From Candidatus Bathyarchaeota archaeon (GTDB lineage: Archaea; Thermoproteota; Bathyarchaeia; Bathyarchaeales; Bathycorpusculaceae): 64,000 nt of DNA. The translations under genes were made by a program, and so were the position numbers. Of this stretch, positions 32,553 through 59,938 are shown one piece after another (the first letter of the stretch is position 1; every line of letters starts with the position of its first letter). The notes under the pieces were generated by a model. It was given only the letters and a program-made list of their open reading frames with translations. It was not told the origin of the DNA and did not search any database. The stretch covers positions 416,001-480,000 of the forward strand of contig CAWAKC010000001.1 in the NCBI GenBank assembly GCA_963782525.1, given 5' to 3'.

Positions 32553-35087
32553 TTATGCTCTCTTCTTAATCATCAGCAAGGCCAGTACGATGAAACCTGC
32601 GATGACTAAGACGAATAGGCCTGCGATTGCGGGGATAAAGTAGGTGTCGGCGACAGATGCGGGGATAGCTGTTGGAGCTATGGTAGGTGCTGCTTTGTCG
32701 TCTACTGTGAATGCTGTTTCTGCGTGTGAGGACCAGTATGATTCTGAGCCGTCAAAGCTTGCGATTACTGTGTATGTGCCAGCAATGTCAGGTGTGTATC
32801 GATAGCTAAAGCAGCCGTTTGCATCGCTTGTTGTTTGTCCGATTTGGCGGTAGTTATTGTTGGAGTCTATTGCGTATAGTGTCACTGGTACACCAGTAGT
32901 ATTGGTTGGTCGAGGCTTCTGCATGTACACGTAGTCCATCCAGTCGCTCATACTTTCGTCTGAAACGGCTGGTACACCATTTGGAAAACGTCCAGCTTGC
33001 TCAGTCTGTTGAGTGCCTGCAGCGATGTCTGTTACGGTGCCTTCGATGATTACGCTGCTGCCTTGAACTGAAACTTTGGGTGAAGCGGCGACTGTAGTTT
33101 GGCTTGGGCCTTTACCGACAGCATATAACTGCAGATCGTATAAGTTCAGATATACAAAGTAGCCATCTGCAATAGCAAAGCCGTTATTAGAGCCATACCC
33201 ATCGATTGTCCATATTTCAGCTCCAGTAGTTGCGTTTATCCACCTGAATTGAACGCCTTTGAGGTGCGGTGAATTGGCAGAGTGTTCAGTGGTGTACAAG
33301 AAGACTTTTCCATCAGTAATTGCGCCTATGCCTAGTGGGAATCCTGGGTAGCCTGCGTCTAAGCCGGCTGGTGCTGTGTAGTTCCATAGTTGTTGTCCGG
33401 TGTTGAGATCGTAACAGTAGAGTACTCCTGCGTAGCCTGCTGAGTAGAGTTTGCCGTTTGCTACAGCGTATCTTGTTAGACCAAGGTCTGCATAGTAGTT
33501 GAAGTCAACTTCTGATGGAGTTTGCCATAGTTTTGTGCCGTTGTCAACGCTGAAACCAGCCCACTGTATCTCTTCTTTATCATACATTGTAAAGACGCGT
33601 GTGCTTGGATCTATAAAGAGGCTCATGAATACTGGCGCAAAGCTTAAGGTTACGTTGCCGGATGGTGCATCATAGTTTTTCATCCACAACAGGTTGCCGC
33701 GGCTTTCTGGTTTAAGACTTATTGCCCAAACTGTATAGGGACTCCAGCTGCTGCCTGGTGCAGGTAAAGTGCCGTTGCTGCCGATCAATACGTCGTTGTA
33801 GATGAACCCTTGTATGGTTCCGCCCGCCATTAGTGGGACTGATACGTTCCATGAGTATGCTGTGCTAGCGTCGACTGATTTGCCTACAGGTCTCCATTGG
33901 TTGTAGTTTGTGGTTGTGTAATCATTGGGGTCAGTTGAGGCTGTTAAGCCGTGAGCTGCGGTGTTGTTCCATAATGCGAGCCATTTGCCATTTGAGCCTA
34001 GCACGTATCTGAGTATTTCGCCGTTTGGACCGTAAGATGCGGTTCCTGTGGGAACGTTAGTTTCGTTGAATAGCCAGTTTCCGGTCATGGGGTCATATGC
34101 AATTAATGTTGTGCCTTGAGATGCCCATAAGTAGCCGTTTCGGATCATTCCGTGTTGGTTGATTGACTCGTAATCGTAGAGTTGACCAAATGTTGGAGTG
34201 ACTGATGTCCAATTTTGCCACCATAGTTGTTTGCCAGTCATTAAGTCAACACAGACATATCCTGAGCCTTTGGCTGCATCGCTTAGAGGCAGTGGATAAT
34301 AGAGTTTGCCTTGTATGATTAATGGAGCGCCAAAGATGCCTTCGTAAGCGGTTCCATCGTAGTATGTTACGTCTTGGATGCCGGTTTGGGATACATCTCC
34401 ACCTACAACACCTCCAAACGCGTACGGTTGCGTCCACATTATGTGTGCACTGTTAGGCGCTGATCCACCTAGCTGAACTTTTCCCCATATCTGGGGGGAT
34501 GCAAGCCAGTTAGATGCGATACTATACCATTGTGTGTTTTGTCCTTCTATGGGGCGTGTCCAATATTCGGTTGGAAGCGGATAGTTAGGTACTGCTGGTA
34601 TTGCATCTTGTTGAACAGTAATTGTTGTAGTTGCGGTGCTTGCAGCGTAGGTATTGTTGATACCAATGTTATAGTTGTATATGCCTGTTCCATTGCTTCC
34701 AGTTATGACTTGCGGTCCGAAACGAGACGTAAACGTGTACGTTCCAACCATATCAGGGGTGAATAAGTAGTAGCTGCCTCCGACAGGATCGGAAGTGAAC
34801 GGCCCTTGAGTTGTGATCGTGTTGTCAGGTGCTTTAATGTCAAGGAAGAAGAACCATCTGTCTCCGGCTGTGCCGGCTGCAGTAGGCGGGATCTTGTCAA
34901 CCCAAAATACTATGGTTGCAGTTTGACTTACTCCGATTGGGTCAGGTGAAGCCGTGATGTAGGCGTAAGTCGGATATGTCCAAGCAGGATAATGTGCATT
35001 AACACTCGGTAGAGCAAAAAACGGTACAGTAATAGTTAACATTAACAACATTGCAAATAACGTAGCATTTTTTTTGGATATTTTCAA
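32553..35087 (-). CDS. Secreted, C-terminally anchored PQQ-like beta-propeller protein, paralogue 1
   Basis: Signal peptide, Ig-like N-domain, YCYDLNTGQQLW-type blade motifs, Pro/Thr linker, TM helix and basic tail. Confidence 0.88.
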   Translation of the reverse strand: MKISKKNATLFAMLLMLTITVPFFALPSVNAHYPAWTYPTYAYITASPDPIGVSQTATIVFWVDKIPPTAAGTAGDRWFFFLDIKAPDNTITTQGPFTSDPVGGSYYLFTPDMVGTYTFTSRFGPQVITGSNGTGIYNYNIGINNTYAASTATTTITVQQDAIPAVPNYPLPTEYWTRPIEGQNTQWYSIASNWLASPQIWGKVQLGGSAPNSAHIMWTQPYAFGGVVGGDVSQTGIQDVTYYDGTAYEGIFGAPLIIQGKLYYPLPLSDAAKGSGYVCVDLMTGKQLWWQNWTSVTPTFGQLYDYESINQHGMIRNGYLWASQGTTLIAYDPMTGNWLFNETNVPTGTASYGPNGEILRYVLGSNGKWLALWNNTAAHGLTASTDPNDYTTTNYNQWRPVGKSVDASTAYSWNVSVPLMAGGTIQGFIYNDVLIGSNGTLPAPGSSWSPYTVWAISLKPESRGNLLWMKNYDAPSGNVTLSFAPVFMSLFIDPSTRVFTMYDKEEIQWAGFSVDNGTKLWQTPSEVDFNYYADLGLTRYAVANGKLYSAGYAGVLYCYDLNTGQQLWNYTAPAGLDAGYPGFPLGIGAITDGKVFLYTTEHSANSPHLKGVQFRWINATTGAEIWTIDGYGSNNGFAIADGYFVYLNLYDLQLYAVGKGPSQTTVAASPKVSVQGSSVIIEGTVTDIAAGTQQTEQAGRFPNGVPAVSDESMSDWMDYVYMQKPRPTNTTGVPVTLYAIDSNNNYRQIGQTTSDANGCFSYRYTPDIAGTYTVIASFDGSESYWSSHAETAFTVDDKAAPTIAPTAIPASVADTYFIPAIAGLFVLVIAGFIVLALLMIKKRA

Positions 35088-35148
35088 GTTTTTTTATTCT
35101 CCTTTAAAGTTCATGCGTCCACTAACGTGTTAGTGTTAATAAGCCTGA

Positions 35149-35163
35149 CTCACTTATCGTGAG
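35149..35163. promoter_or_regulatory. Palindromic operator CTCAC-TTATC-GTGAG, 5 nt upstream of TATA (CTTATTAA on minus)
   Basis: Same motif and same spacing at four paralogue promoters. Confidence 0.8.
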
Positions 35164-35562
35164 GAAAAAAAGCTAACTTAAGATACTGCAAACCTTCCAA
35201 ACGGTATCTCAATATAGAACAGTCAATTTGCGAATCCTTAACAGATAGTTTCACAGTTACATTGAAGGACGAGTATTTTTTTGTGCTAAGAATATCACTT
35301 GTTTTAACGTTATTATTAAATCAAAATTCCAGTTAGTCTCGAGGAATAATATCTTTTTTTATCTTTCCTACCTGCAAACACTGGTAATTCTAATTCACAG
35401 AAGTGCATAGCTCAACTTTACTGATTGGATGACTAAAACAAATTTTGATAAAAAGCGTACTTTTGCCTCAAAGGCTGAGAAGCGCGTGGGGCAGTTATAC
35501 AAGGAGAGAAAATCAAATATACACAAACTGCAGCTAATTCGCTAAATAGGAGGCATCCATAA

Positions 35563-36243
35563 ATCTCAGAACAGGTTTTCCTAGTCGCAGAAGAAACTTT
35601 TTCTTCACTCATCTGTTTCATTCTCGTATGGTTCTTAATAAAGCCATATCAGGTTACTAGAGAAAGTCGATATTTGGGGCTCCCCCTTGGATTTGGGTTT
35701 CTTGCCGCCTCCTATGCGTTTTCAGCTTTTGCACATTCGTATCCTACTTTTTCGATCAATCCTTTGGCATGGTTCCAACTCCTCTCACGTCCATTTGCTT
35801 TTGCATTTCTAGCGTTCACATATTATTTTGCCAAGAAAACTTCAACAAACACTCGACTAATCTGGGATGCAACATTAAGTTGTATGATCGTTGTTTTGAC
35901 AACCCTCTTTATTCTGTTTCTTGTCGCGCCAAAACTCGCTCTTGATAATTATCGCCTCTTAAGCATTTATGCCCGGGTTTTTGACATAGTCTGCCTGATC
36001 TACATCACTACCCATACAATCAGAAGTCACTTAGTAAGTCAAGATTCAAAAACAATATTGACGCCATTCGGATACATGCTTCTTGGAATAGGCCAATACT
36101 CATTGTTAATTTGGAATATAGGGGATATGAACAATAAATTTCCATTTTATGGAGGCTTGGCACTTCGTTGGATAGGATTGGTTCTTTTCCTCATAATTGC
36201 ATACCGAACCTTTTATGGGTCACAAAAAAGGATGTCTGAATGA
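35563..36243 (+). CDS. 7-TM membrane protein, copy 1 (probable ATC start)
   Basis: Open frame aligns with paralogue 43432..44097 for 37 codons upstream of the tracked TTG. AGGAGG lies before ATC 35563. Confidence 0.75.
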   Translation: MSEQVFLVAEETFSSLICFILVWFLIKPYQVTRESRYLGLPLGFGFLAASYAFSAFAHSYPTFSINPLAWFQLLSRPFAFAFLAFTYYFAKKTSTNTRLIWDATLSCMIVVLTTLFILFLVAPKLALDNYRLLSIYARVFDIVCLIYITTHTIRSHLVSQDSKTILTPFGYMLLGIGQYSLLIWNIGDMNNKFPFYGGLALRWIGLVLFLIIAYRTFYGSQKRMSE

Positions 36244-36521
36244 AGAAAAAAGCCAGAAGAAACAAAATGAAAATCTACGGAGACCTTTTGTCTATTATTA
36301 AGGCTGAAAAAAAGAGCGCAGACAGGATAGTTTTGACACGCATTCAGGCGAAAATGAATGTTCCCTTCGACCGTTTAAAAAACTACATTTCTGACTTAGA
36401 AGATCTCAAATTAATCGAAGACCAGCTTTCACTCAACCTCACTCAAAAAGGCAAACAATATCTAGATGAATATCAGAAAATCCTTGATTTCATGGAACGT
36501 ATGGGCATAGCCAACCGATAA
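36240..36521 (+). CDS. Small ArnR1-like winged-helix protein, copy 1
   Basis: RR.K..IY.DLL, LTRIQ..NVPFDRL..Y, LTQKG; ATGA overlap with the 7-TM gene. Confidence 0.85.
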   Translation: MKKKARRNKMKIYGDLLSIIKAEKKSADRIVLTRIQAKMNVPFDRLKNYISDLEDLKLIEDQLSLNLTQKGKQYLDEYQKILDFMERMGIANR

Positions 36522-37059
36522 AAACAATCGATAGTCTTGCATTGAAAGAATAATCACCGCATCTTTGCTATTAAAAAAGAGGGGCTGCTGAATCATTTCT
36601 CCGACTGAAGTGGATTAATTATCCCCTATGGTGCTGTGATAATCTCAGTGAAAATTGACCAAAATTGCTGGTTATTGAGGAAAATGGAAAAGGAAGATGA
36701 TTTTATAGCGCTAGAATAAGTTAGTCAATACGCGATTTTTTTTGGAGGCAGTTTCATAGTTCGATTTCAGGAAAAAGGGTTCGTTTTTTAAGATAACGCT
36801 ATTTTTTAATTCACGTTATTCTTGAATTATAATTAAAGCGGGAAATTTGACAACTTCATTTTATCCATTCTGATGGCAGATAATTTGAATTTTAAGTCAA
36901 AAAACAACTTCAGTGAAATTTTTCAAATGGATCGTGTCGCTAAATATTTATATACTTATTAAATAAAAATTAGAGCAATAGTACGCAATTAAATATACTT
37001 AAAGAATCTAAAAATAGTTTTACTTTTAAGCGATAAAGAGCTCACTTACAAATCTGCAG

Positions 37060-37338
37060 TTACTCAATAGTGTAAAGTGGTTGGGAAGGGTAGTTCTGTG
37101 TTTCAAAAGGCATTGATTTTGTTACACGAAGAATGCTAGTTGCAGGACCAGTAGTGATATATACGATTTCGACTTTAGGGAACTGCGTTTCTATTAATTC
37201 TTTAAGCTTATTAAGATCCTTTTCGTTCGCTTTAAGAATTAGTGCTCTCGGCTTGATCTTGTAAGAAGCTAAATCCAAACTAACTACTTGCGAAACGTCA
37301 CTATTTTGGGTACTTTCTTTGAGGTTTGACTCAACCAT
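37060..37338 (-). CDS. Unknown small cytoplasmic protein, copy 1
   Basis: KIKPRA.I.KA..DL..ELI.TQFP.VEI.Y.T.GP core shared with two other copies. Confidence 0.8.
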   Translation of the reverse strand: MVESNLKESTQNSDVSQVVSLDLASYKIKPRALILKANEKDLNKLKELIETQFPKVEIVYITTGPATSILRVTKSMPFETQNYPSQPLYTIE

Positions 37339-37409
37339 TTTCTTCCAGATCCTTTAATTTTTTGTTTTTTCCCATCAAAAAAAGGGATAAGGATGTTGTT
37401 TTTTGTTGT

Positions 37410-40070: not shown

Positions 40071-40132
40071 TTTTCTTTTTTCCTTTTTAGTTTGTGAACT
40101 ATCATTGCTCATGTTACATCTAATAAGCTGAA

Positions 40133-40147
40133 CTCACCGATCGTGAG
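40133..40147. promoter_or_regulatory. Operator CTCAC-CGATC-GTGAG, 5 nt upstream of TATA (CTTATTAG)
   Basis: Conserved motif and spacing. Confidence 0.8.
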
Positions 40148-40488: not shown

Positions 40489-43251
40489 TTATGGCCTTTT
40501 CCTCAGCAATAGCAGACCGACTATGGCTATTGAAATGATTATAGCAATCACTCCAACTGCCAAGTACATGATTATGTCTGTTGTTGTTGCAAGGTTTGTT
40601 TGGGGTGTAGTTGTTGGTGCATTTGTTGGTGCTGCTTCTACAACGCTCAGGTAGGTTTGCGCTAATGAACTGCTGTAGGCTTTGGAGCCATGGAATGTGG
40701 CGATTATCTGGTATGTTCCTGATATTTCGGGTTTCCAGTTGCATCCGTATGCGCCGGTTAAATCGCTTGTGACGCTGCCGATTTGAATATAGTTGCCGTT
40801 TGGATCAATAGCAGTTAATTCTACTGGGACACCGGTAGCGTTTGTTGGCTTTGCTTGGTTCTCGTATAGGTATTCCATCCATGGACCCATGCTTTCGTCG
40901 GATATCGCAGGTGTACCTTCAAGCGTGAAGTCATAGAGATTATTCATGTTGCGTCTGCCTGATTTTGTTTGATCAGTTACTGTACCGGTGATGGTTACGC
41001 TAGAGCCTAGTGTTGGATCAGCCTGCGGCGCGTTAACTGTTGTAGCACTTGTGCCTGGACCTATGCAGTATATTTGGTTGTCAAAGTAGTTTAGACCTAC
41101 AACTTTGCCATCGCCAAATTGCATGTATTGACCTGTGAGATGTGCACCGTTGTCAGCGCCCATGCCTAAAAGTGACCAGATTTCTGTTCCATCAGCTGCA
41201 CTGATGCAGCGTATGTTTGGTCCTCTGTACAAGGGTTGAGTAATTGAGTGCTCGCCTGTAAGAGTGTAGATTTTGTCATCGCAAATGGCAAAGATGTTAA
41301 TCGGGTAGTTGCCATAGGGTGATTCGCCGCCTTCGTTTGTAGCTGTGAAGTTCCATGCCTGTTGACCAGTGGATATATTGTAGGCAATGCATACTCCGCC
41401 ATATCCTGTTGTTAGAAGCAAGCCTTTGTAGTAGTTGATTTGAGTGCTGTAGTAGTTTTGGTCAGGTTCTCTTGCACTTTCCCAGAGCAATGCGCCTGTC
41501 TTCATGTCATAACCCCAGTATTTCAGTTGCTTTGTAGAGTGGAATAGTATTATGCCGTCTTCGGGATAAACGCCGCTTAAGGATAGGGTTGTGTCGTTTT
41601 GTGCAACTGATGCGTATGGCGCTGAAAATGGTGTAGTCCACAATTGTGTGCCTTCTTTGCCTCTTTCCAAGCTATAGCACCATAGTTGACCTTGTACATT
41701 TCCGAGTTCGTTGTTTTGTCCTTGTGTACCGACGATTACAAAGCCGCCTACACCGTTTGTGTCACCTACACGAACAGTTCTAATTGTACCGTTTTGGTTA
41801 AGGGGGCTTGGTCCCATTGGCGTGGCTATTGAGGCGTTCACTGAGAATCCGGTTGAACCATCCCAAACGTATGCATTGCTTAGTGCTGGTCCTCCTCCGA
41901 ATCCTCCGCCTTCAGGTCTCCATTGCCAGTAAGTTGTACCAGTGTTGGGTCCTGTTGCGGTTTCGCCGAGAACGTTAGTGTTGTTCCAGCATGTTAAGTA
42001 ATATTTTGGATTTGCGTTTGTTCCTTTGTTAACAAGGTTGTACCAGAGTAAGTCACCATTGTTGCCGACGACGTTTGTACCTGATGCGGATGCGTTAGCT
42101 ATGTAACATATGTGACGAAGCGGCAGTGAGTATCCATCAAGCATTTCTAAGACTGAGCCGTTAGCAGTACCAAGACTTGGACCAGCTCTCCACAAGAGTG
42201 GGTATATTCCGTGTTGGTTAGGTGACTCATATTTGTAGAGTTGACCATAAGATGGCATAGTATCGTTGAAGTATCCTAGTAACTCACCTGTGTTTAAGTC
42301 AACAACGTTAAAGCCAATTGATCTATAGGCGTCCGCGCGATCTGCATAGTAAACTCTGCCATTTAGAATTATCGAGTTGAAGTCCATTCCTTGATAGTGT
42401 CCAGTTATATAGCCGTAATCTCCGAATCGAGCTTCAACGTCGCCGCCGGCATATAGGCTTCTTGTCCATAGAATGTGGGATGTTTCTGTCCCAAGACCAT
42501 AAACAAAACGGGTCGTGGTACCGCCGGATTGTCCTGTAGGTTGATTCCAAGCGCCATTAAGCCAGTTTCCTCCAAGTTGGAAGCCCCAATTTCTTGCAGC
42601 GTTGTTTATTGGGCGTGTCCAGTAATCTTGCGGAACAGGGGATTCATTCCATGCCGGTATTGGATCTTGCTGTACAGTAAAAGTTACATCTTCGCTATTT
42701 CCTGCGGTGTACAATTGGCTTGTCGGAGTTGGGTAACCATATTGTTTTGGGGTCGACACGTAAGTTCCGTTAGCTGCCTGTATTAGAGTGCTGTTTTTCC
42801 ATTGTTCAGGGAAAATAGCTTTGACAGTGTATTGACCAACTTCTGTGGGTGAATATATCATGTATCCACCGCCAATTGAGTCTTGTTGACCCACTGCGAC
42901 CGGAACATTAGTAGTCACTCCACTTGGCGTTGTGATGTTAAATGATACACCACTCCACACGGCTCTATTGAAGGCACCTGCAGTTATGAGTTCAGTTTCT
43001 CCAGTGTCTGGCGGAATGTCAGCAGTCCAGTAAGCAAAGACTTCGTCCTGTCCAACGCCAATCAAATTACTAGATACACTGCAATATACGTAAGAGGTAT
43101 GAGTAATTACATTAGTAGGGTAAGCTTGAGCAGCATCAACAGTTGGCGCAAATGCGAGTGCACCAGCCATAGATGCTATTAGCAAAAGAATGATTACCGT
43201 AGCTGATATTTTGTTTTTTGAGAGTTTTGCTGTTTTATTTATAGAAGTCAT
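40489..43251 (-). CDS. PQQ-like beta-propeller surface protein, paralogue 3
   Basis: YWTRPI, YESPNQHG, GEHS, LRKRP tail. Start reassigned to ATG 43251. Confidence 0.88.
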   Translation of the reverse strand: MTSINKTAKLSKNKISATVIILLLIASMAGALAFAPTVDAAQAYPTNVITHTSYVYCSVSSNLIGVGQDEVFAYWTADIPPDTGETELITAGAFNRAVWSGVSFNITTPSGVTTNVPVAVGQQDSIGGGYMIYSPTEVGQYTVKAIFPEQWKNSTLIQAANGTYVSTPKQYGYPTPTSQLYTAGNSEDVTFTVQQDPIPAWNESPVPQDYWTRPINNAARNWGFQLGGNWLNGAWNQPTGQSGGTTTRFVYGLGTETSHILWTRSLYAGGDVEARFGDYGYITGHYQGMDFNSIILNGRVYYADRADAYRSIGFNVVDLNTGELLGYFNDTMPSYGQLYKYESPNQHGIYPLLWRAGPSLGTANGSVLEMLDGYSLPLRHICYIANASASGTNVVGNNGDLLWYNLVNKGTNANPKYYLTCWNNTNVLGETATGPNTGTTYWQWRPEGGGFGGGPALSNAYVWDGSTGFSVNASIATPMGPSPLNQNGTIRTVRVGDTNGVGGFVIVGTQGQNNELGNVQGQLWCYSLERGKEGTQLWTTPFSAPYASVAQNDTTLSLSGVYPEDGIILFHSTKQLKYWGYDMKTGALLWESAREPDQNYYSTQINYYKGLLLTTGYGGVCIAYNISTGQQAWNFTATNEGGESPYGNYPINIFAICDDKIYTLTGEHSITQPLYRGPNIRCISAADGTEIWSLLGMGADNGAHLTGQYMQFGDGKVVGLNYFDNQIYCIGPGTSATTVNAPQADPTLGSSVTITGTVTDQTKSGRRNMNNLYDFTLEGTPAISDESMGPWMEYLYENQAKPTNATGVPVELTAIDPNGNYIQIGSVTSDLTGAYGCNWKPEISGTYQIIATFHGSKAYSSSLAQTYLSVVEAAPTNAPTTTPQTNLATTTDIIMYLAVGVIAIIISIAIVGLLLLRKRP

Positions 43252-43316
43252 TTTGTTTTTTTCTCTTCCTTTTAATTTGTAATAACAAACCCAGGAGTTA
43301 GAGCTAATAAACCACA

Positions 43317-43331
43317 CTCACCTATCGTGAG
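43317..43331. promoter_or_regulatory. Operator CTCAC-CTATC-GTGAG, 5 nt upstream of TATA (TTTATTAG)
   Basis: Conserved motif and spacing; lies in the divergent promoter shared with the 7-TM/wHTH pair. Confidence 0.8.
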
Positions 43332-43431: not shown

Positions 43432-44097
43432 ATGTACCAAGAAGCGCGGGTCATAGTAGAAGTTGTATCGGCAATCATTTGCTTCATTCTTGTAAGATAC
43501 ATGATAAAACCATATTCGTTTACAAAAGAAGGCCGCTATCTTGGTTTACCTTTGGGGTTTACTTTTCTTGGTGCATCATACATTATTTCAGCCCTTGCAT
43601 ACACCGAACTTTATCATTTCTCTGACTTCCTATGGATTCAACTACTTGTAAGGACATTCGCATTTGTGTTCCTAGCAGTGACGTATTACTTTTCTAAGAA
43701 ACCTTCAAAAAATACCCGGCAGTTATGGGATATAACTCTTAGTTTGTTAATCGTTAGTGTATTTGCTTTGTTTCTGGTGACTTTTATATTTCCGCAAATT
43801 GCGTCAGATGCATATCTTGAAAGCCAAGTGTATATTAGAGTTTTTATCGTAATTTGCCTCTCTTACATCGCTATCCATACACTTAGAGGTCACATAAAGA
43901 ATCCAGATCCAACAACAATTTGGGTTCCAATGGGTTATATTCTTCTGGCAATAAGCCAATATTCACTTTTATTCTGGTATCTTGACAATAGCTTAGCTGC
44001 CTTTACAGGTTCCTTGGTACTTCGTTTAATGGCGTTAGTAATTTTTCTGGTAGTAACCTATCTTTCATTCAAAGAAAATAAAAGGAAGGGAAAATGA
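43432..44097 (+). CDS. 7-TM membrane protein, copy 2
   Basis: Seven hydrophobic segments; IKPY..RYLGLPLGF and FAF.FLA.TYYF.KK shared with copy 1. Confidence 0.85.
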   Translation: MYQEARVIVEVVSAIICFILVRYMIKPYSFTKEGRYLGLPLGFTFLGASYIISALAYTELYHFSDFLWIQLLVRTFAFVFLAVTYYFSKKPSKNTRQLWDITLSLLIVSVFALFLVTFIFPQIASDAYLESQVYIRVFIVICLSYIAIHTLRGHIKNPDPTTIWVPMGYILLAISQYSLLFWYLDNSLAAFTGSLVLRLMALVIFLVVTYLSFKENKRKGK

Positions 44098-44372
44098 AAA
44101 AGATTTCACGGAGAGATAAACTGAAGATTTATGGCGACCTATTGTCTGTTCTTAAGGATAAAGCTAACAATGAAAACATAGTGTTAACTCAAGTTCAGGT
44201 ACGAATTAATGTGCCTTTCGATCGCTTAAAAAAATACATTTCTGAGATTAAGGAACTGGGATTAATTCAAGATGAGACCACACTTGTACTTACCGAAAAA
44301 GGCAAACAATACCTAAGTGAATACGAGAGCGTTCTCGAGTTTATGAAGCGTATGGGTATTACTTACCAATAG
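44094..44372 (+). CDS. Small ArnR1-like winged-helix protein, copy 2
   Basis: Clear paralogue of 36240..36521; ATGA overlap. Confidence 0.85.
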   Translation: MKKISRRDKLKIYGDLLSVLKDKANNENIVLTQVQVRINVPFDRLKKYISEIKELGLIQDETTLVLTEKGKQYLSEYESVLEFMKRMGITYQ

Positions 44373-46886: not shown

Positions 46887-49508
46887 TTATGGTCGTTTTC
46901 GGAGCAGTAGTAATCCGACTATTGCTATTGCAATTATTATGGCGACTGTTGAGAGGGCGATGTATGTTTCGGTGGGTGGCATCGTAAGTACTGGGTATGG
47001 GGATGGTGTAGGTGCTGAATCGGTGACTGCCATGGCGGTTTCTGCATGTGAGGCAAAGTACGAGTTGGTTCCGTAGAATGAGGTGATGATTGTGTATTTG
47101 CCTGAAATCTCTGGAGTGAACACGTAGCTGTATTGGCCGTTAATGTCGCTTGTGGTGTTGCCGATGTGTACTAAGTTGCTGTTTGGATCGATTGCATCTA
47201 TGCTGACTTGGACACCTTTTGCGTCTGTGGGTATTGGTCTTTCATGGTAGGTGTATTCCATCCATGCGGTCATGAAATCATCCGATATTGCTGGTGTTCC
47301 TTTAGCGCCTGGAGATTGATCAGTGACACTTCCTCGTATGACTGCACTGGATCCAAGTGAGAGAACTGTATCTGGAGCTGTCACGGTTGTTTCAGTTTGT
47401 CCCTTACCGAAGCAATAGATCGAATTGTCCATCTGGTCATAGTTTACGAGGTAACCATCGGCTATTGCCATGCCATTTGATAAGCTGGTGATGTTCCACA
47501 AGCCCGCTCCTGTATCAGCATCGAAGCAGTATATTGTCCAACCTCTGAGTAATGGTTGAGTGTGTGAGTGCTCGCCGGTGGTTACGTAGACTTTGTGGTC
47601 AGCGATGTATGTTTGTGCTGCGGGCCAATTGGGGTATGGACCTTCAAGTTTTCCTGGATTGAGGCTTGAGTTCCAGAGTAATTCACCTGTCTTTATGTCG
47701 TAGCAATAGAGTATACCTGCGTATCCTGCTGAGTAGATTTTGCCGTAGGCTGTTTGTCCGTTTAAGCCATACATGTCGTATTGGTCTTGGGAAGCTGAGG
47801 GACCCCAGACTTGTGCTCCTGTGTCTAAGCTGTAGCCGTACCATTGTCTGGTTTCTTTTAGTTTCATGGTAAAGATTCCAGCTTGTTCGTCAATGACTCC
47901 CATGATCATGGTGCCGTTGGTAATTGGTGCTCCATTGTAGTCTTTCTGCCACATCAGCGTTCCCATTGAACCTGGCTTCAAGCTTAATGCCCAAATGCTG
48001 TATGCGCCGACTCCGTACTGGAAGCTGGCTAATCCTTTTACGCCTATGAGTCTGTCGCTGAGGATGTTGTTGACGCTGCCTAAGTTTTTGGGCACAGTTA
48101 TGTTCCAGGAATAGCCATTGCTGCCGTCGATAGTTTCGCCTATGGGTTCTCTTAGCATCCAATAGAAAGCTTCTGCACTTTGGTAGGCTGAATATGGTAC
48201 GCCTAGGTTGTTGTTGGGGAAAGATATAGCTACTGTTGAATTCCAGAGTGCCAGCCAGCCGTTTACTTGGTCGTATACGTAGATCAGTTCTTCGCCATTC
48301 GGTCCGACTACGCGTGTTGAAGCTGCAAACTGTGCTCCACTTGACGGCACGTTAGCGATGTTACATATCCATTTACCAGTGTATGCATCATACATCTGCC
48401 ACACTGGGGAGTTTGCCGCTGCACTGAAAGAATAGACAGAGCCATTATTTCTCGTGTAGGAGTAGGTAATTGCTTTAGGCTGAGAGTAAGTTGACCATAG
48501 GTATGCGCTTGCTCCATGTTGGTTGCCAGTGTCGTATTCAAGTATTTGACCGAAGGAAAGTACAGGATACGTATAAGGTATTTCAGTAGCTCCTATGTGT
48601 GCGCCTGTTTGTGAGCCGACTTGGATGGGCCCAGTGCCATTGTTGTAGAATATTGGGTCGCCTGTCCGCAAATCAACGCAATACCAACCGTATCGTGGTG
48701 ATCTAGGTTCATTGTAGTAAAGTCTTCCGTCAATGATGATACCTGCAGTCCACATGCCTTCATAAGCGCTTCCCGTGAAGAAACTGTAATCGTCATATGG
48801 TTGTCCGACGATGCCGCCGGTAGCTGTTGGTTTTGACCATACTATATGGGCAGTGCTTGGTGCTGTTGTAGCTGTATTGAAGTTATATGAGGGAGTACCT
48901 CCGCCTAGCCAGTTGCCAGAAATCGCAGACCATTCTCTGTTGGTTGCATAAATTGGGCGTGACCAGTAATCTGTTGGAAGAGGAGTTCCTTGATATTCAG
49001 CTATGGGGTCGTGTTGTACAACGACATACACTGGATCGCTGGTGCTTGGTTGCAAAGTATCGTTAATGTACGCTCCGTAGGCTGCGGTGTAACCACCTGG
49101 GGGAGGATTAGCGCCTGCGTATTTGATCCCTGGAAATTTAGCGACAAATGTGTAAGTACCCTCTTGAGTGGGTGTGTAGTTAGTCCAGCCGCCTCCGACA
49201 GGATCAGAGGTGATTGGTCCTAAGGTCTCGGTTGTATTGTCAGGCCTTGTTATAGTTACAGTAAAGTTGAAGCGGTCACCATATTGTCCAGATGCTGTCT
49301 GCGGAAGTGTATCAAGCCAGAAGACAACTAAGGCATTCTGACCGACACCAACGGGGCTTGGAGTAACAGCGATGTAGGTCCAACTAGCTTTGTCCCATGG
49401 AGGACTATGCGCGGATGCTGTGGGCAAAGTAATGAAGGTTGTTGCGATAGATAGAATCAAAAGAAAGGCAATTGCAAAAGCAAAGGTTTTATTTTTATAG
49501 TTTTTCAT
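46887..49508 (-). CDS. PQQ-like beta-propeller surface protein, paralogue 4
   Basis: Same architecture; NQHG, GEHSH, LRKRP. Confidence 0.88.
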   Translation of the reverse strand: MKNYKNKTFAFAIAFLLILSIATTFITLPTASAHSPPWDKASWTYIAVTPSPVGVGQNALVVFWLDTLPQTASGQYGDRFNFTVTITRPDNTTETLGPITSDPVGGGWTNYTPTQEGTYTFVAKFPGIKYAGANPPPGGYTAAYGAYINDTLQPSTSDPVYVVVQHDPIAEYQGTPLPTDYWSRPIYATNREWSAISGNWLGGGTPSYNFNTATTAPSTAHIVWSKPTATGGIVGQPYDDYSFFTGSAYEGMWTAGIIIDGRLYYNEPRSPRYGWYCVDLRTGDPIFYNNGTGPIQVGSQTGAHIGATEIPYTYPVLSFGQILEYDTGNQHGASAYLWSTYSQPKAITYSYTRNNGSVYSFSAAANSPVWQMYDAYTGKWICNIANVPSSGAQFAASTRVVGPNGEELIYVYDQVNGWLALWNSTVAISFPNNNLGVPYSAYQSAEAFYWMLREPIGETIDGSNGYSWNITVPKNLGSVNNILSDRLIGVKGLASFQYGVGAYSIWALSLKPGSMGTLMWQKDYNGAPITNGTMIMGVIDEQAGIFTMKLKETRQWYGYSLDTGAQVWGPSASQDQYDMYGLNGQTAYGKIYSAGYAGILYCYDIKTGELLWNSSLNPGKLEGPYPNWPAAQTYIADHKVYVTTGEHSHTQPLLRGWTIYCFDADTGAGLWNITSLSNGMAIADGYLVNYDQMDNSIYCFGKGQTETTVTAPDTVLSLGSSAVIRGSVTDQSPGAKGTPAISDDFMTAWMEYTYHERPIPTDAKGVQVSIDAIDPNSNLVHIGNTTSDINGQYSYVFTPEISGKYTIITSFYGTNSYFASHAETAMAVTDSAPTPSPYPVLTMPPTETYIALSTVAIIIAIAIVGLLLLRKRP

Positions 49509-52287: not shown

Positions 52288-52365
52288 GGGCCGGTCGTCT
52301 AGCCTGGTTAGGACGTTGGCTTTACGAGCCAAAGGTCGCCGGTCCGAGTCCGGCTCGGCCCACCA
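52288..52365 (+). tRNA. tRNA-Val(UAC)
   Basis: GGGCCGG/TCGGCCC acceptor stem, TTGGC-TTTACGA-GCCAA anticodon arm, encoded CCA. T-loop is the variant TCCGAGT. Confidence 0.93.
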
Positions 52366-52408
52366 CAAATTAATAATTGACATTAACAATTAGGCTTAAA
52401 AAATTTAG

Positions 52409-52714
52409 TTATTCAACAGTGTAAAGTGGTTGTGCGGAAGGTTTCTGAGTTTTGAAGGGCATTTATTTGGTTACGCGAAGGATACTTGCTGTTGGACCGC
52501 TAGTAACATAGATGATTTCGACCTTGGGAAATTGTGTTTCTATTAATTCTTTAATTTGATGAAGGTCCTTGTCGTTTGCCTTAAGTATGATTGCTCTCGG
52601 CTTGATCTTTTTTGAACAAGCCATTTCCGAACACAGGGGAACCTCTTGAGTTTTTGACATGACTTCAAATTTGGTTACCTCACCGAAAGACGGTTCAACC
52701 TTGATTTTGTCCAT
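52409..52714 (-). pseudogene. Unknown small cytoplasmic protein, copy 3, with in-frame TAA at 52463-52465
   Basis: RVTK*MPFKTQKPSAQPLYTVE versus copy 1 RVTKSMPFETQNYPSQPLYTIE (TCA to TAA). Confidence 0.8.
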
Positions 52715-52792
52715 GGAGTTCAGCCTTTTTTCAGTGTTAATTTACAAACATTATGAAAAAAAATAAAAAGGGAATGGATTTTTTACTGATTC

Positions 52793-55714
52793 TTATCGTT
52801 GCTTTCTAAGCATTAGAATTGCTAGTACAGCGCCGACGATGATGATGACGACGATTATGGTTATTCCGACGGTCATGAGGTCTGAAGAGGTCAGTGATGC
52901 TGGTGCCGTTGTTGGTGCAACTGTGGCATGCGATTCCATGATGTTGAAGGTGGTTTCAGTGTGTGATGGCCAGTAACCGTTTGTTCCTGCAAATGTTGCC
53001 AAGACTGTGAAGTCGCCTGGAACGGTTGGTGTGTATGTGAGACTATAGGTGCCTGTTTCATCGGTTGTTGCGCTGCCAATGGAGTATTGATTTCCGTTTG
53101 AATCGACAACGCTCAGGTCGACTTTAACGCCGGTGAAATTAGTCGGTTTTGCTGCTTGCTGGTAGACATAGCTCATCCAATCACTCATACTTGAATCAGA
53201 TGCGCATGGGACGCCAGCTGGGAAGTTTGCTGCTTGCTGTGTTTGCTTTGTTCCAGCTGAAGTGTCAGTAACAGTGCCGCGTATTACCACTGGGGCTCCG
53301 AATGCTGAAACTGCAGGTTCTGCTGAAACTGTAGTAGCGCTGCTTCCTCGACCAACACTGTAGATTTGGTTGTCGTAGCCGTTTGTGAACACGCTAAAAC
53401 CGTCTGCGATAGCATAGCTCATTTGGCTGAATTCGCCGGTGTAATCTGAGAGTGTCCAGATTTCTTGTCCTGTAGTGGCATTTACTGCGCGGGCTAAAGC
53501 TCCTTTATAGATTGGGTCTGTAATTGTGTGTTCTGTAGTGACTAAGTAGATGACGCCGTTGCCAACTGCGTTGAGGAAGGTCGGGTAATCGCCGTAGGGT
53601 GTGCTTAAGGTTTTAGTTGTGTTTCCTGCTCCTCCGTTTCCGTATGTCCAATCAAGGTGTCCGGTTGTATCATCGTAGCAGTAGAGTATGCCCGAGAATG
53701 AGCAGTCGTAGAGTTTGCCGTATGCAATTTGGCTTGGTTGCCAGATGAAGTATGGTGCACCGTAGTAGTCAAAAGCTGTTTGAGCTGGAGTTGGACCCCA
53801 TATTTGGGCTCCGGTTGTTAAACTGTAGCCGTAGTATTGTTGTGTTTCTTGATATGACATCATGAAGACGTTGGTTGTTGGGTCTGCACCTGCAAATTTG
53901 AGGGTAAGGTTTCCCGTTGGTGGATCATAGGTCTTGGACCAAAGTACTTGGCCTATTGCACCGTTTGAGGCGTTGAGGTTTACTGCGAAGAGTGTGTAGG
54001 GGAGCTGTGGGTAGCCTGCACCGCTTGCGGCATAACCAGTTGGTAAGGATCCATTTCCGCAGAGCATCATGTTACCTGTGAATGCAGCGTAGACTGTAAC
54101 GGGGTTTGTTCCAGCAGCCGGTGTTGAGTATACTCCTGTAGCAGCGTTGTAGGTTTGTTGCAGTGGCATCGTGTTAAGCCAAGGCACAGAAATGTTCCAA
54201 TCATAGGTGGCTAATGAAGCATTTCCTGCGCCCGTTTGGTAAACACCACCGGTTGAAGCTGGCAGAGGTATGTTCCCGTTGACGATTAGGCTTGAGCCGT
54301 ATGGTGCAAGGAAGCTTGTACCGTTGGGTAGTGTTCCGCTTGTGCCTGTAAGGGCGATTGGAACAGCGGTGATTAGTAAGCCGTTGCTTGCGTTAACGAT
54401 TGATGGTGAGGTGCTGCCGCTGAAAGTGTATGGGTTAATGTCGTATTGCCAAAGTTTAGATGAATTCCACTGTGCTAAGTACCATTGAGGATTTGTTGGT
54501 GTGCCTGCGTTAGCAAAGACGTATCTTAATTGCTCACCATTTGGACCCATAGTTGTCGCTGAACCGCCGGGAACGCCAGTTACATTGAACAAAGCAGTAC
54601 TTGTGAATGCATCGAAAACTTGTGCCCAGTTAGCTGTTACTAGCATTGGTGGGAAAACGCCGTGTTGGTCAGGGTCCCACAGGTTGTAAATGTAGCCGAA
54701 AGATAGCGCTGGGATGCTGTTTGAAGACCAAGCGAGCTGTCCTGTTCGTAGGTCAACGCATTTGAGTGGTCCGTTATTTGGAGCTGTGAAGCCTACTGGT
54801 TCAGTGTAGTAGAGGTAGCCGTTGATTACTATCGGGTTAGTGAATCTTTGATTGTATGCAGAGCCTTCAAAGTATCCGACGCCTTGACCAGAGTAATCGT
54901 TTCCTCCGACTACTCCGCCGAACTGAATGGGTTTTGTCCACATTACGTGAGGGGTTTGGGAACCGACTGCGTCTCCTGGGTATCGTTGAATGTATGCTTG
55001 CGCTGTGAAACCGGTGAGTGTGTTAAAGCCAGTTGTCGATATAACGCCTGAACCTGTTCCTAGCCAGTTTGAAGAAATAGACCACCAGTCACTATTTTGA
55101 CCGTAGATTGGTCGTGTCCAGTATTCAGTTGGCATGGGAACACCAGATAGGGGTTGAGGAATAGGTTCTTGTTGAACTGTAAGTGTTGTTGATGCTGTGC
55201 TTGGCAGATAAGTGTCATTGATAAGTTGTGATCCAGAGTAACCGTTGCCGTTTGCTCCATAGACTTGTCCTAGGTAAGTGAAGTTGAGAGTATAAGTACC
55301 AACCATGGTGGGAGTAAAAGTATATCCTTGAGCGCTGTCTGAGCTTGTGATGACGGGGAAGAGTTGTGTTGTTGCTGTGCCGTTGGGTGGTGTTATAGTA
55401 AGCTGATAGTTTATGAATCTCCAGCTGTTTGAGAGTAATGCTCCACTGGATGTAGAACCGTTGGTTCCTAGAGTTGCTCCAGAGCCGCCTGCTGAACCGT
55501 AAAGTGCGTCAAGCCACATGTATACGTTGATTGATTGACCGACACCCACAGGGTTCGGCTCTGCAACAATGTAGGCATATGTTGGAATTTGCCAAGATGG
55601 TGTGTGGGCGTTAGCTGAGGGCAAAAGTACAAGCGAAGCGGAAATACTCAGCATTAGAATGATTGCGATTGTAGAAGCCATAATTTTTGTTTTTTTATTT
55701 GTAAAAGATAGCAT
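52793..55714 (-). CDS. PQQ-like beta-propeller surface protein, paralogue 5
   Basis: Same architecture with insertions; DQHG, TEHT, LRKQR. Confidence 0.88.
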   Translation of the reverse strand: MLSFTNKKTKIMASTIAIILMLSISASLVLLPSANAHTPSWQIPTYAYIVAEPNPVGVGQSINVYMWLDALYGSAGGSGATLGTNGSTSSGALLSNSWRFINYQLTITPPNGTATTQLFPVITSSDSAQGYTFTPTMVGTYTLNFTYLGQVYGANGNGYSGSQLINDTYLPSTASTTLTVQQEPIPQPLSGVPMPTEYWTRPIYGQNSDWWSISSNWLGTGSGVISTTGFNTLTGFTAQAYIQRYPGDAVGSQTPHVMWTKPIQFGGVVGGNDYSGQGVGYFEGSAYNQRFTNPIVINGYLYYTEPVGFTAPNNGPLKCVDLRTGQLAWSSNSIPALSFGYIYNLWDPDQHGVFPPMLVTANWAQVFDAFTSTALFNVTGVPGGSATTMGPNGEQLRYVFANAGTPTNPQWYLAQWNSSKLWQYDINPYTFSGSTSPSIVNASNGLLITAVPIALTGTSGTLPNGTSFLAPYGSSLIVNGNIPLPASTGGVYQTGAGNASLATYDWNISVPWLNTMPLQQTYNAATGVYSTPAAGTNPVTVYAAFTGNMMLCGNGSLPTGYAASGAGYPQLPYTLFAVNLNASNGAIGQVLWSKTYDPPTGNLTLKFAGADPTTNVFMMSYQETQQYYGYSLTTGAQIWGPTPAQTAFDYYGAPYFIWQPSQIAYGKLYDCSFSGILYCYDDTTGHLDWTYGNGGAGNTTKTLSTPYGDYPTFLNAVGNGVIYLVTTEHTITDPIYKGALARAVNATTGQEIWTLSDYTGEFSQMSYAIADGFSVFTNGYDNQIYSVGRGSSATTVSAEPAVSAFGAPVVIRGTVTDTSAGTKQTQQAANFPAGVPCASDSSMSDWMSYVYQQAAKPTNFTGVKVDLSVVDSNGNQYSIGSATTDETGTYSLTYTPTVPGDFTVLATFAGTNGYWPSHTETTFNIMESHATVAPTTAPASLTSSDLMTVGITIIVVIIIVGAVLAILMLRKQR

Positions 55715-55975
55715 TTGTTTTTTTCTCCTTTTAACCTATTCTCTCACATAAGTCTTGCTCATATATAATATTTTTTAATTTTGGCTTCAAAGCTCAAATA
55801 TTTTTTAAATAGTGCATTAACGTGGAAATATTCCACTACAAACGTTATCAAAACGTATTCAATAACTCAATCACAGCCACAAATAAAACAGATAATGCTG
55901 TTAAATTTATGACGATAGTTTACTTGGCAATTACAAGATAATGATATTAACAACAAACAAGTAAAAAGACCGAAG

Positions 55976-56950
55976 ATGACAACTAAAATAGATTCACTAA
56001 ATCTCAAAATTCTTAAAGATTTACTCAGTGAAGGAAGAAAACCATTTGCTGAAATTGCTGAGGAAAACAATGTCTCTAAAGAAGTTGTTTCAAAAAGGTT
56101 CAAGCAACTAAAAGCGAAGGGAATAATTTTAGGATTCACCACACAAAATAGTGTCAGATGCTATGGCGCCAGCTTTGTTTCAAACATTTTTATTCACGTT
56201 GAACATGGCGGAGTGGAAAATGTCATCAAAGAGTTGAAGAAAATACATAACGTGACCCAGGCTTATCCCTTGGCAGTGGAACAAAAAGTAATAACCGACG
56301 TTACTTTTAAAAACATAGAGGAAGTAGAATCTACTAAAAAAATAATACAGAGAATATCAGGCGTTCTGAGAACTGACATTACAATTTGGACTGGATTCAG
56401 AAACACTCCAGAAAACTTATCTTTTTTCAACCATGAAGATGTAGTCGGCACAGAAACAGTTGAAAAAAGTGACTTCATTAAAAGAAAAACAGGCATAGAA
56501 ATCGATGCGATTGACAAAGTCATCGTAGACAAGCTGTCGTTAAATGGCCGTATGCCCTTTGCAGATATTGCTAACCCGCTTGGAGTATCAATTGAAACCA
56601 TAGCACGAAGGTATGAAAAACTCAAGCAAAACGGCGACCTAAAAGTGGTTGTCCAAATAGACCCCACCAAACTAGGATATTATGCCTTTGGTAGATTCAC
56701 CTTTTCTTTTCGCCAGGAAGCTTTAGAGGGCAACCTGAAAATAATCTCCAAGCTTCTTGATGTGAATAGAATTACCAAATCTGCTGGCTTTCATGATTTA
56801 AGATTCACGTTAATGATAAGAGATATCAATCATTTCATAAAAGTGCAAGATGAGATGCTTCTTTTGCCCAATGTAACTAAAATAGAGACTAGTATAACAA
56901 AAATGCTTTGTCCTTGGCCTATGCAAAGAGAATTTATTTCAACATTTTAG
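55976..56950 (+). CDS. Double-domain Lrp/AsnC regulator
   Basis: Two HTH+RAM repeats (GRKPFAEIA and GRMPFADIA); divergent from paralogue 5. Confidence 0.9.
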   Translation: MTTKIDSLNLKILKDLLSEGRKPFAEIAEENNVSKEVVSKRFKQLKAKGIILGFTTQNSVRCYGASFVSNIFIHVEHGGVENVIKELKKIHNVTQAYPLAVEQKVITDVTFKNIEEVESTKKIIQRISGVLRTDITIWTGFRNTPENLSFFNHEDVVGTETVEKSDFIKRKTGIEIDAIDKVIVDKLSLNGRMPFADIANPLGVSIETIARRYEKLKQNGDLKVVVQIDPTKLGYYAFGRFTFSFRQEALEGNLKIISKLLDVNRITKSAGFHDLRFTLMIRDINHFIKVQDEMLLLPNVTKIETSITKMLCPWPMQREFISTF

Positions 56951-57092: not shown

Positions 57093-57343
57093 TTTTAACT
57101 AAAGGAGCTTGATTTTGAACTTATTTGGGGGTAATGATGTATTTGCTCACAAGGACGAAGGGTTTGCTGGGCTCTGTTAAGGGAAAAAGAGGAAGAATAG
57201 GAACAAACCCCTGCTCCACGCAGCAGCTTCGATCTACGTTGAGGTTTAACAGAGCACTCTCAGCCCCTCATAGACTTCTTCGTTTGTTGTTAATTTGAAA
57301 AAAATAAGAAAAAAGGAAGATTGATGTTGGTTTTTTGGTTTTC

Positions 57344-59842: not shown

Positions 59843-59923
59843 TTTTTTTTCTCCATTAGATATTTTTCTTTTTCTCCAATTTCATGGATAAAGTAAACAG
59901 CCCCAAACCGCTATTAAGACTTT

Positions 59924-59938
59924 CTCACCTATTGCGAG
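59924..59938. promoter_or_regulatory. Operator CTCAC-CTATT-GCGAG (1 mismatch), 5 nt upstream of TATA (CTTAATAG)
   Basis: Conserved motif and spacing. Confidence 0.72.

Follow-up and report, generated by a model that had tools for sequence, protein, structure and literature searches.

A seven-transmembrane/winged-helix gene pair and a 15-bp palindrome linked to a subset of expanded propeller genes in Bathyarchaeia

In the BlaR1-BlaI and MecR1-MecI systems, a signal protein in the membrane and a small regulator with a winged helix act through palindromic operators without a kinase, and their genes lie together, divergent from the target. BlaR1 combines a penicillin-binding ectodomain with an M56 zinc-protease domain that cleaves the repressor. 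A similar layout is found in a 64,000-nucleotide stretch of DNA from a soil archaeon, Candidatus Bathyarchaeota (GenBank assembly GCA_963782525.1, contig CAWAKC010000001.1, positions 416,001 to 480,000), here called the window. There, genes for a seven-transmembrane (7TM) protein and a small winged helix-turn-helix (wHTH) protein are encoded together and divergent from a gene for a membrane-anchored beta-propeller protein, with palindromes between. In contrast to BlaR1-BlaI, the position of the site suggests activation and not repression. No Pfam match to M56 peptidase or Penicillinase_R was found in the 7TM protein (19 members) or the wHTH protein, which leaves the pair outside the BlaR1/BlaI type. 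On balance, the pair probably forms a kinase-free one-component regulon, split between a membrane protein and a wHTH factor, that controls a subset of the propeller genes.

Each half of the pair has relatives among described families. MASE3 (PF17159) and HisKA_7TM (PF16927), which are N-terminal in histidine kinases and cyclases, have seven helices and a length similar to that of the 7TM protein. The latter, however, scores under the curated cut-offs and has no kinase or cyclase fused to it, its presumed output being the separate wHTH protein. The Sso10a/HTH_45 proteins of Thermoproteota (solved structure 1r7j) share with the wHTH protein a length of ~92-95 aa and a winged helix followed by a C-terminal helix. 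Whereas those proteins have been discussed as chromatin proteins, the wHTH gene lies behind the 7TM gene and is linked with one palindrome; we know of no Sso10a protein paired with a membrane protein. Ptr2 and TFB-RF1 are archaeal activators that bind just upstream of the TFB-recognition element (BRE) and TATA box, and a position rule is described for TrmBL1 and SurR. The site described here is placed like those of Ptr2 and TFB-RF1, ending 6 nt before the TATA box and abutting or overlapping the BRE, but the protein family differs.

Among the uncultured archaea of soils, peat and sediments, Bathyarchaeia rank with the most abundant. For the Bathy-6 lineage, the main text of one report describes expansions of proteins with the PQQ domain (pfam13360), at 24-46 copies per genome, with Sec signals and immunoglobulin (Ig)-like domains. 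According to that text, the expansions are lineage-specific and arose by duplication, and the proteins are proposed to carry out extracellular pyrroloquinoline quinone (PQQ)-dependent redox action on lignin or humic matter (PMC11697101). The genes studied here are of the same kind and also reach tens of copies (34 loci in 2.87 Mb), but where that text proposes redox enzymes, the present data support the propeller family alone. The words transcriptional regulator, winged, helix-turn-helix, Lrp and promoter are absent from the main text (PMC11697101). Control of the expanded propeller genes is not described in the literature searched, and literature on Bathyarchaeia surface/PQQ proteins, MASE3, Sso10a, TackOD1 and archaeal membrane-bound winged-helix regulation yielded no description of the pair or the site. 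The propeller expansion is therefore already known, while no earlier account of the regulatory cassette appears to exist.

The window holds six of the 34 paralogous propeller genes of a 2.87-Mb genome in 12 contigs, numbered 1 to 6 in the order of their coordinates. Paralogues 1 and 3 are each divergent from a coupled 7TM-wHTH pair, as had been reported in a first-pass annotation of this DNA made from the sequence alone:

35563..36243, plus strand: 7TM protein copy 1, frame open and conserved from 35563; divergent from paralogue 1
36240..36521, plus strand: wHTH copy 1, 93 aa, HTH_45/Sso10a family; 42.1 bits against a cut-off of 25.5
43432..44097, plus strand: 7TM protein copy 2, 221 aa, weakly MASE3-like, predicted N-out/C-in; divergent from paralogue 3
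44094..44372, plus strand: wHTH copy 2, 92 aa, HTH_45/Sso10a family; 45.2 bits against a cut-off of 25.5

In both pairs, the stop codon of the 7TM gene and the start codon of the wHTH gene overlap as ATGA. The 7TM copies are 48% identical to each other (lengths 221-226 aa) and the wHTH copies 58%. The best solved relative of the wHTH profile is Sso10a (1r7j, E 0.017).

The pairing extends well beyond the window. Distribution was counted in 401 genomes of the class, with families coded f1, f7, f24 and f35. The 7TM gene is present in 45 of them, including 31/103 genomes of f1 (22/40 in the genus of the present genome), 3/18 of f7 and 10 of f35. In 45 of 46 loci (L039-L084), which represent three families, the wHTH gene lies directly behind the 7TM gene on the same strand. 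The 7TM-wHTH pair is a conserved, coupled gene unit. In the exceptional locus (L077, G361:C4, 4278-5615; f35), a protein with a TackOD1 domain (PF18551, E 3.7e-23) takes the place of the wHTH protein; passages of one study describe TackOD1 as an archaeal output domain (PMC5847659).

The neighbours of the pair differ between families. Of 28 f1 loci (L039-L066), 26 have a propeller gene in their 1.5-kb flanks, whereas the f7 pairs stand beside genes for a Kelch protein, a small anchored surface protein, a mechanosensitive-channel-like protein and an AIM24 protein. The linkage of gene families across Bathyarchaeia that the first-pass annotation proposed to look for is thus found between 7TM and wHTH genes and, in f1, with the propeller, but f35 pairs have no propeller nearby. 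In that family, a Na+/H+ exchanger gene lies beside the pair or in an operon with it in 5/10 loci (L069-L073 of L069-L078). A third copy of the pair in the present genome (G000:C3:196608-197198; L107 2310-2702) was considered as a natural fusion and rejected as a decayed remnant. It retains the last 7TM helix alone, running in frame into a wHTH sequence with a frameshifted C-terminus, and has no propeller neighbour.

The other element of the proposed system is a 15-bp palindrome, CTCACGATNNGTGAG, which occurs exactly at 35149-35163, 40133-40147 and 43317-43331 and with two substitutions at 59924-59938. Each copy precedes a propeller gene:

35136..35163, minus strand: operator CTCACGATAAGTGAG, comprising the site (35149-35163), 6 nt and TTATTAA (35136-35142); upstream of paralogue 1
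40120..40147, minus strand: operator CTCACGATCGGTGAG, comprising the site (40133-40147), 6 nt and TTATTAG; upstream of paralogue 2
43304..43331, minus strand: operator CTCACGATAGGTGAG, comprising the site (43317-43331), 6 nt and TTATTAG; upstream of paralogue 3
59911..59938, minus strand: operator variant CTCGCAATAGGTGAG, comprising the site (59924-59938), 6 nt and TTAATAG; upstream of paralogue 6

The earlier report of one palindromic operator at a fixed promoter position before four propellers was therefore correct. At 43317-43331, the site stands in the 180 nt that separate paralogue 3 from the divergent second 7TM gene. The whole genome contains five CTCAC-N5-GTGAG sites, namely the three exact copies in the window, C1:316900 and C3:130335. 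All five are 28-102 nt upstream of propeller starts as called by script (the 28-nt case being measured to the upstream ATG of paralogue 2, whose favoured start at 40070 is further downstream), and the reversed genome has none. This placement is far beyond chance. Six promoters, the variant included, have a spacing of exactly 6 nt between palindrome and TATA box (TTATTAR, TTAATAG or TTAAATA), and in all six a T-rich tract precedes the palindrome. By archaeal promoter geometry, the palindrome thereby stands at or just upstream of the BRE position. The site occurs at 6 of the 34 propeller loci, four of them in the window, and the six operator-bearing paralogues are scattered on a tree of 32 paralogues. 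Judged by this arrangement, the 15-bp site probably marks a regulon of a subset of surface-protein genes. Together with the two-gene cassette it constitutes a concrete handle by which the regulon could be read from any genome.

The site also follows the pair from genome to genome. In the genus, at least one CTCACNWWWNGTGAG is present in 21 of 22 genomes with the 7TM gene (55 sites in all), compared with 2 of 18 without it; the latter two have one CTCACNWWWNGTGAG each, with untypical centres. A first, overlapping draw of genomes gave 13/17 with the 7TM gene and 0/7 without. The sites cluster within a few kb of the 7TM-wHTH pair, and the intergenic regions of L043, L051, L054 and L063 contain two sites ~110 nt apart, one near each divergent gene. 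Single matches at chance level occur across unrelated families (for example 15/71 in f24), and the distant f35 pairs yielded no palindrome in common when one was searched for.

Family f7 bears on which protein reads the site. In locus L068, the promoter of the 7TM-wHTH operon itself contains a site, again 6 nt from a TATA-like box, and L067 has a one-mismatch copy in the corresponding promoter. The f7 site is found before the anchored surface protein gene and the AIM24 gene as well. Because the pair's own promoter carries the site where no propeller is adjacent, we infer that the wHTH protein, and not a propeller-linked factor, reads it. This is the best available argument for that assignment.

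The function of the membrane half is less clear. The 7TM protein aligns with MASE3 over nearly its full length (residues 6-202 to profile positions 10-211 of 226), and MASE3 matches 11 of 19 7TM members at E <= 0.01 (best E 1.1e-5), but a window copy reaches only 24.7 bits where the cut-off is 31. The NCBIfam model MASE3_PAS_HK matches at E 8e-6. The 7TM proteins end 9 residues past helix 7 and lack the fused output domain of MASE3-type proteins. The clusters closest to them in a protein atlas contain unnamed proteins of Archaea and Chloroflexota, 210-239 aa long, and the closest with a Pfam name is HisKA_7TM (score 0.81, a lead only). No relative was found among PDB sequences with the 7TM profile, and no transporter, peptidase or exosortase family matched in Pfam (19 members) or NCBIfam. 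An exosortase-like reading of Cys, Arg and His residues was dropped, there being no exosortase family match and the nearly invariant Cys142 being Ser in one member.

The C-tail and loops 1, 3 and 5, taken as cytoplasmic, hold 14 lysines and arginines, and the outside loops 0; by the positive-inside rule, the topology is predicted to be N-out/C-in. Conservation averages 0.71 over the three cytoplasmic loops, compared with 0.46 in the outside loops, which are variable and only 6-13 residues long. Most of the invariant motifs are in the cytoplasmic loops, where conserved stretches include RYLGLPLGF in loop 1 and HTLRxH in loop 3. An AlphaFold2 model consists of seven long helices (mean predicted local distance difference test score, pLDDT, 78.8; predicted template-modelling score 0.75). 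A profile search over 1.84 billion representatives gave 159 relatives at E <= 0.001; among the best 150 of these, nearly all are shorter than 300 aa. The sole long relative among those 150 is P0195, a metagenomic representative of 976 aa, which has a signal peptide, PKD and other Ig-like ectodomains, and then a C-terminal 7TM domain (family profile E 2.4e-9).

In complex prediction, the 7TM and wHTH proteins scored 0.50, compared with 0.00 for the best of three controls; runs agreed in at least 76% of contacts, and partner pLDDT was at least 66. The interface suggested in the first-pass annotation thereby gains weak support. The mark for this score is reached by 116/157 solved complexes and 2/215 mismatched pairs, and scores at the mark but no higher than 0.60 come from 18 of the 157 solved complexes and both passing mismatches; with the custom alignments used, this calibration holds only roughly. 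A sensor role for the 7TM protein is weakly supported by the sub-threshold MASE3 likeness, the conserved cytoplasmic loops and this score. Thus, of the kinase-free 7TM/wHTH regulon proposed at first pass, the gene unit and its association with the site stand, while the sensor is the weaker part.

The start of 7TM copy 1 is unusual. Its apparent start codon is ATC at 35563, 9 nt after AGGAGG and directly behind an in-frame stop. In three orthologues (L009, L020 and L021), an ATC or ATT likewise comes after a box of the AGGAGG type, which reads GGGGG in L009. Translation from TTG at 35674, the first canonical start, would lose helix 1. To judge from this alignment of starts, the membrane partner may have a weak but conserved start codon, the non-canonical ATC or ATT.

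In the regulon proposed here, a wHTH dimer would bind the 15-bp palindrome and, abutting the BRE and TATA box, would help or hinder recruitment of TFB and TBP. Activation is the more likely of the two, somewhat, because the site lies just upstream of BRE/TATA and the archaeal position rule associates that placement with activators. The 7TM protein would bind the wHTH protein through its conserved cytoplasmic loops, and may free it or retain it on the cytoplasmic face when a cue arises in or at the membrane or comes from a partner anchored there. The Na+/H+ exchangers of f35 and the anchored surface proteins of f1 and f7 point to the cell envelope as the source of the cue. The cassette would be portable, standing in related families beside other surface proteins or Na+/H+ exchangers, and would autoregulate through the same site. 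If true, a kinase-free split membrane-protein/wHTH design would be added to the small set of archaeal signalling routes.

In a more specific version, the 7TM protein is the membrane part of a receptor, and the anchored propellers themselves provide its ectodomain in trans. Within the membrane, it would read whether their C-terminal anchors are present, loaded or ligand-bound, and would then release the wHTH protein to switch propeller genes on or off, giving feedback on, or a choice among, the surface repertoire. This fits the fusion of PKD and Ig-like domains to a 7TM domain in the 976-aa relative, the near-absence of outside loops and the TackOD1 protein in place of the wHTH protein, yet we regard it as quite improbable. 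Were it true, it would represent an undescribed archaeal class of kinase-free 7TM-to-DNA signalling that is movable between targets such as surface proteins and Na+/H+ exchangers.

Several findings weigh against the split regulon as a whole. On the membrane side, MASE3 scores stay under the Pfam cut-off with no output domain fused to the 7TM protein, and Foldseek found no match to its model at E <= 0.001 (best E 1.2e-2, TM 0.4-0.6). The best VIA hit has a Z of 15.3 (root-mean-square deviation 3.6, 210 residues, 6% identity), where helical models reach ~14 by arrangement alone, and fold searches return generic G-protein-coupled-receptor-like bundles that are not significant. At the level of this complex score, wrong passes outnumber right ones except for pairings that are likely beforehand. 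Some 7TM genes have no adjacent wHTH gene (second copies in L010/L025 and L037; L030, with a split 7TM gene). On the side of the site, 28 of the 34 propeller loci are without it. In the first draw, 4 of 17 genus genomes with the 7TM gene showed no pattern match, and one of them, G022, again had none later; the intergenic regions of these four contain one-mismatch variants. The genomes are related and not independent, so that the co-occurrence of site and pair overstates the support.

Much of this would suit a wHTH protein that regulates the operator-bearing genes autonomously, the 7TM protein being co-expressed for another job such as handling, anchoring or transport connected with surface proteins or ions. 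The grounds for a sensor include a sub-threshold MASE3 likeness and a weak complex score, the outside loops of 6-13 residues are short, half of the f35 loci place the pair beside a Na+/H+ exchanger, and some 7TM genes are found unpaired. Against this stands the strict 7TM-then-wHTH order, with overlapping or near-abutting codons, in 45 of 46 loci through three families whose other neighbours differ. The replacement of the wHTH protein by an output-domain protein in L077, the concentration of 7TM conservation in cytoplasmic loops and the want of any transporter, peptidase or exosortase family match also speak for a functional partnership, and an autonomous wHTH protein appears rather unlikely. 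A different objection concerns the wHTH protein itself. The Sso10a family includes architectural chromatin proteins, whose architectural modes of DNA binding are described in one report (PMC4941522), and the NCBIfam model Sso10a_fam gives the wHTH protein 38.1 bits, under its cut-off of 60. The protein might then be a general Sso10a-like chromatin protein, with another factor binding the palindrome and the adjacency to the pair being historical. The near confinement of the site to pair-bearing genomes, its clustering close to the pair and its presence in the f7 pair's own promoter speak against this, and a chromatin protein is not expected to be missing from 18/40 genomes of one genus; we hold it to be very improbable.

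Least credible of all is that the module merely traces a recent segmental duplication of one propeller cassette with no regulatory meaning, an outcome that the first-pass annotation had named as fatal to its proposal. The paralogues are indeed tandem and co-oriented, with leader and trailer motifs in common. However, the other window propellers are only 38-45% identical to paralogue 1, the 7TM copies are 48% and the wHTH copies 58% identical, and paralogues of a small gene behind some of the propellers (described below) have a synonymous divergence (dS) of 1.2-2.5 and a nonsynonymous to synonymous ratio (dN/dS) of 0.14-0.28. On the tree of 32, paralogues with the operator and those with the small gene stand scattered, and the same linkage recurs in other species and families. 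Because these divergence figures contradict it, a recent duplication is rejected.

The split regulon favoured here covers only part of the propeller family. Searches with the six window copies (tblastn and blastp) gave 34 propeller loci in the whole genome, 32 of at least 700 aa and two split. A seventh tandem propeller lies at C1:480049-482985, just past the window end. Across the class, propeller profile matches occur in 76/401 genomes: 62/103 of f1 (39/40 in the own genus), 12/18 of f7 and one other. In 17 of the 39 propeller-bearing genomes of the genus, no 7TM gene was seen; the pair is therefore an optional regulator among several and not a master switch. The earlier suggestion that the pair switches on the repertoire is overstated on this count and on the small number of propeller loci with the site.

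Other regulators accompany other paralogues, and some paralogues have no obvious regulator beside them. As stated at first pass, paralogue 5 is divergent from a double Lrp gene:

55976..56950, plus strand: double Lrp/AsnC regulator, 324 aa; divergent from paralogue 5
55822..55836: palindrome GTGGAA-N3-TTCCAC, 15 nt, upstream of the TATA-like box of paralogue 5

The regulator matches HTH_AsnC-type in two stretches (E 1.8e-17) and AsnC_trans_reg with 33.8 bits against a cut-off of 25, and belongs to the tandem Lrp/AsnC type. AsnC_trans_reg is listed as one stretch, residues 71-137; a second ligand domain may be presumed, given the protein's length and its alignment to double-Lrp paralogues. The palindrome at 55822-55836 is a possible Lrp site, but it is not shared by other paralogues, Lrp-linked ones included, and other palindromes precede the TATA-like boxes of other paralogues. 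Among 20 scanned neighbours of other paralogues were four TrmB-family proteins (one with a weak PAS match), one double Lrp and two radical-SAM proteins. Outside the window, TrmB-family (four) or double-Lrp genes stand divergent from propellers on contigs C3, C7, C9, C10 and C11. The radical-SAM genes lie between tandem propellers on C7, one of them with a SPASM domain, and C11 has a further, split double Lrp. The propeller family looks individually wired, with the 7TM-wHTH cassette as one controller among several. Within the region around the window propellers, no kinase, receiver or ABC family matched in the 21 open reading frames (ORFs) scanned at 30-61 kb, in agreement with the first-pass annotation, and with no HisKA, HATPase or Response_reg match among them, no two-component system was found there.

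The six co-oriented propeller paralogues of the window, recognised as such at first pass, are large minus-strand ORFs that encode exported, membrane-anchored proteins of the PQQ_2/BamB-like type:

32553..35087, minus strand: paralogue 1, 844 aa; signal peptide, Ig-like N-domain, propeller, Ig-like C-domain, transmembrane anchor; PQQ_2 49.2 bits
37410..40070, minus strand: paralogue 2, 886 aa from the ATG behind a GGAG box; ORF open to 40112
40489..43251, minus strand: paralogue 3, 920 aa from the ATG at 43251; ORF open to 43317
46887..49508, minus strand: paralogue 4, 873 aa; no CTCAC-N5-GTGAG site
52793..55714, minus strand: paralogue 5, 973 aa
57344..59842, minus strand: paralogue 6, 832 aa
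37365-37388, 40441-40464, 46842-46865, 52751-52774 and 57295-57318: shared 24-nt trailer motif

All six N-termini are K-rich, hydrophobic and signal-peptide-like, and all six proteins belong to PQQ_2 (PF13360; 30.7-54.9 bits against a Pfam cut-off of 27.6). Both ends of each protein have weak Ig-like matches; there is also a linker rich in Thr and Pro, and the C-terminal hydrophobic helix has a basic end, RKRP in four and KKRA or RKQR in the others. Paralogue 1 starts with TTG behind a GGAG box, and the starts of paralogues 2 (40070) and 3 (43251), each behind an AAAGGAG-type box, are later than in the automatic ORF list. Kinship with quinoproteins was sought by phmmer of paralogue 1 against all PDB chains, which returned nothing at E <= 0.1; the only matches in NCBIfam were weak ones to BamB, far under the cut-off. 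For these proteins, the sequences support only the propeller fold family.

The propeller tails (a short motif, a transmembrane helix and RKRP) look like sortase-type signals; no NCBIfam sorting model matched them at E <= 0.01. Two genes of the Exosortase_EpsH family exceed the Pfam cut-off elsewhere in the genome (C9:4835-5650 and C7:378955-379749). The trailer motif, which is A-rich with CCC and 5-8 T on the coding strand, stands behind five of the six propeller stop codons and is terminator-like. It is the only motif that the 3' flanks have in common. The flanks of the six propellers folded no better than shuffles (z -0.89 to +1.50), so that a structured trailer RNA is not evident, and Rfam found tRNA-Val alone.

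Paralogues 2, 4 and 5 are directly followed by a gene for the same protein of about 95 aa, as first noted, the third copy being cut by an in-frame TAA:

37060..37338, minus strand: small protein behind paralogue 2, 92 aa
46505..46810, minus strand: small protein behind paralogue 4, 101 aa, GTG start
52412..52714, minus strand: small protein behind paralogue 5; the ORF at 52463-52714 (83 aa) ends at the in-frame TAA, and the homologous frame continues to 52412

In the third copy, TAA replaces a conserved Ser and the last 17 codons are still recognisable behind the stop. The stop reflects either a recent nonsense mutation or an error in the assembly. The small protein has 79 relatives at 58-100% identity, all unnamed, and consists of a conserved 65-residue core behind a variable acidic N-terminus. 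With a dN/dS of 0.14-0.32 and the dS given above for the paralogues of this genome, it is a real gene, apparently young, under selection and separate from the pair. No match was found in Pfam, NCBIfam or PADLOC, one copy had one weak PHROGs match (E 0.004), and the protein atlas gave no usable match. Fused or longer relatives were sought and none found, which the tool itself rates as weak evidence. Its structure model is poor (31-row alignment, mean pLDDT 57.6, one helix).

The small gene had been proposed as part of the signalling module, which the wider distribution does not bear out. It is found in 7/401 genomes of the class, all of the own genus and all with the 7TM gene, but in only 6 of the 22 genus genomes with 7TM, and the present genome has the highest number of copies, five. 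In other genomes, it lies directly behind a propeller in 11 of 12 loci, the propellers being of different subfamilies. Upstream of such propellers, the divergent position is taken by a 7TM/wHTH pair, by a double Lrp or by neither. Being rare and trailing propellers whatever their regulator, the small protein does not belong to the core of the pair's system. Each copy stands behind a CCC-T7 tract after the propeller stop and ~25-35 nt behind an A/T-rich box, and may be transcribed on its own. Perhaps it acts as a propeller-specific cytoplasmic accessory.

Four metatranscriptome runs, available as contigs, were compared with positions 32500-52499; two of them, X1 and X2, have identical pieces and may be one data set. 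In the soil runs, difference-free pieces (one per run with 5 differences) cover parts of paralogues 2 and 3, and two peat runs have relatives, 90-99% alike, over paralogues 1-3. RNA libraries thus contain parts of these three paralogues or of close relatives. No contig fell on the 7TM/wHTH or small genes, though contigs prove no absence, genes cannot be ranked by contig depth, and the libraries may contain DNA.

Two further features flank the propellers. A GC-rich inverted repeat of 6 nt with a 5-nt spacer (49534-49550) precedes the start codon of paralogue 4 by 25 nt, within its presumed 5' leader, and is not common to the other paralogues. Adjoining the cluster, the overlapping ORFs 30952-31629 and 31197-32411 both match phage terminase large subunit (PHROG 2, E 8.9e-9 and 4.1e-23), and a D5-like regulator match lies at 30411-30977; by these matches, 30411-32411 looks like a broken provirus remnant.

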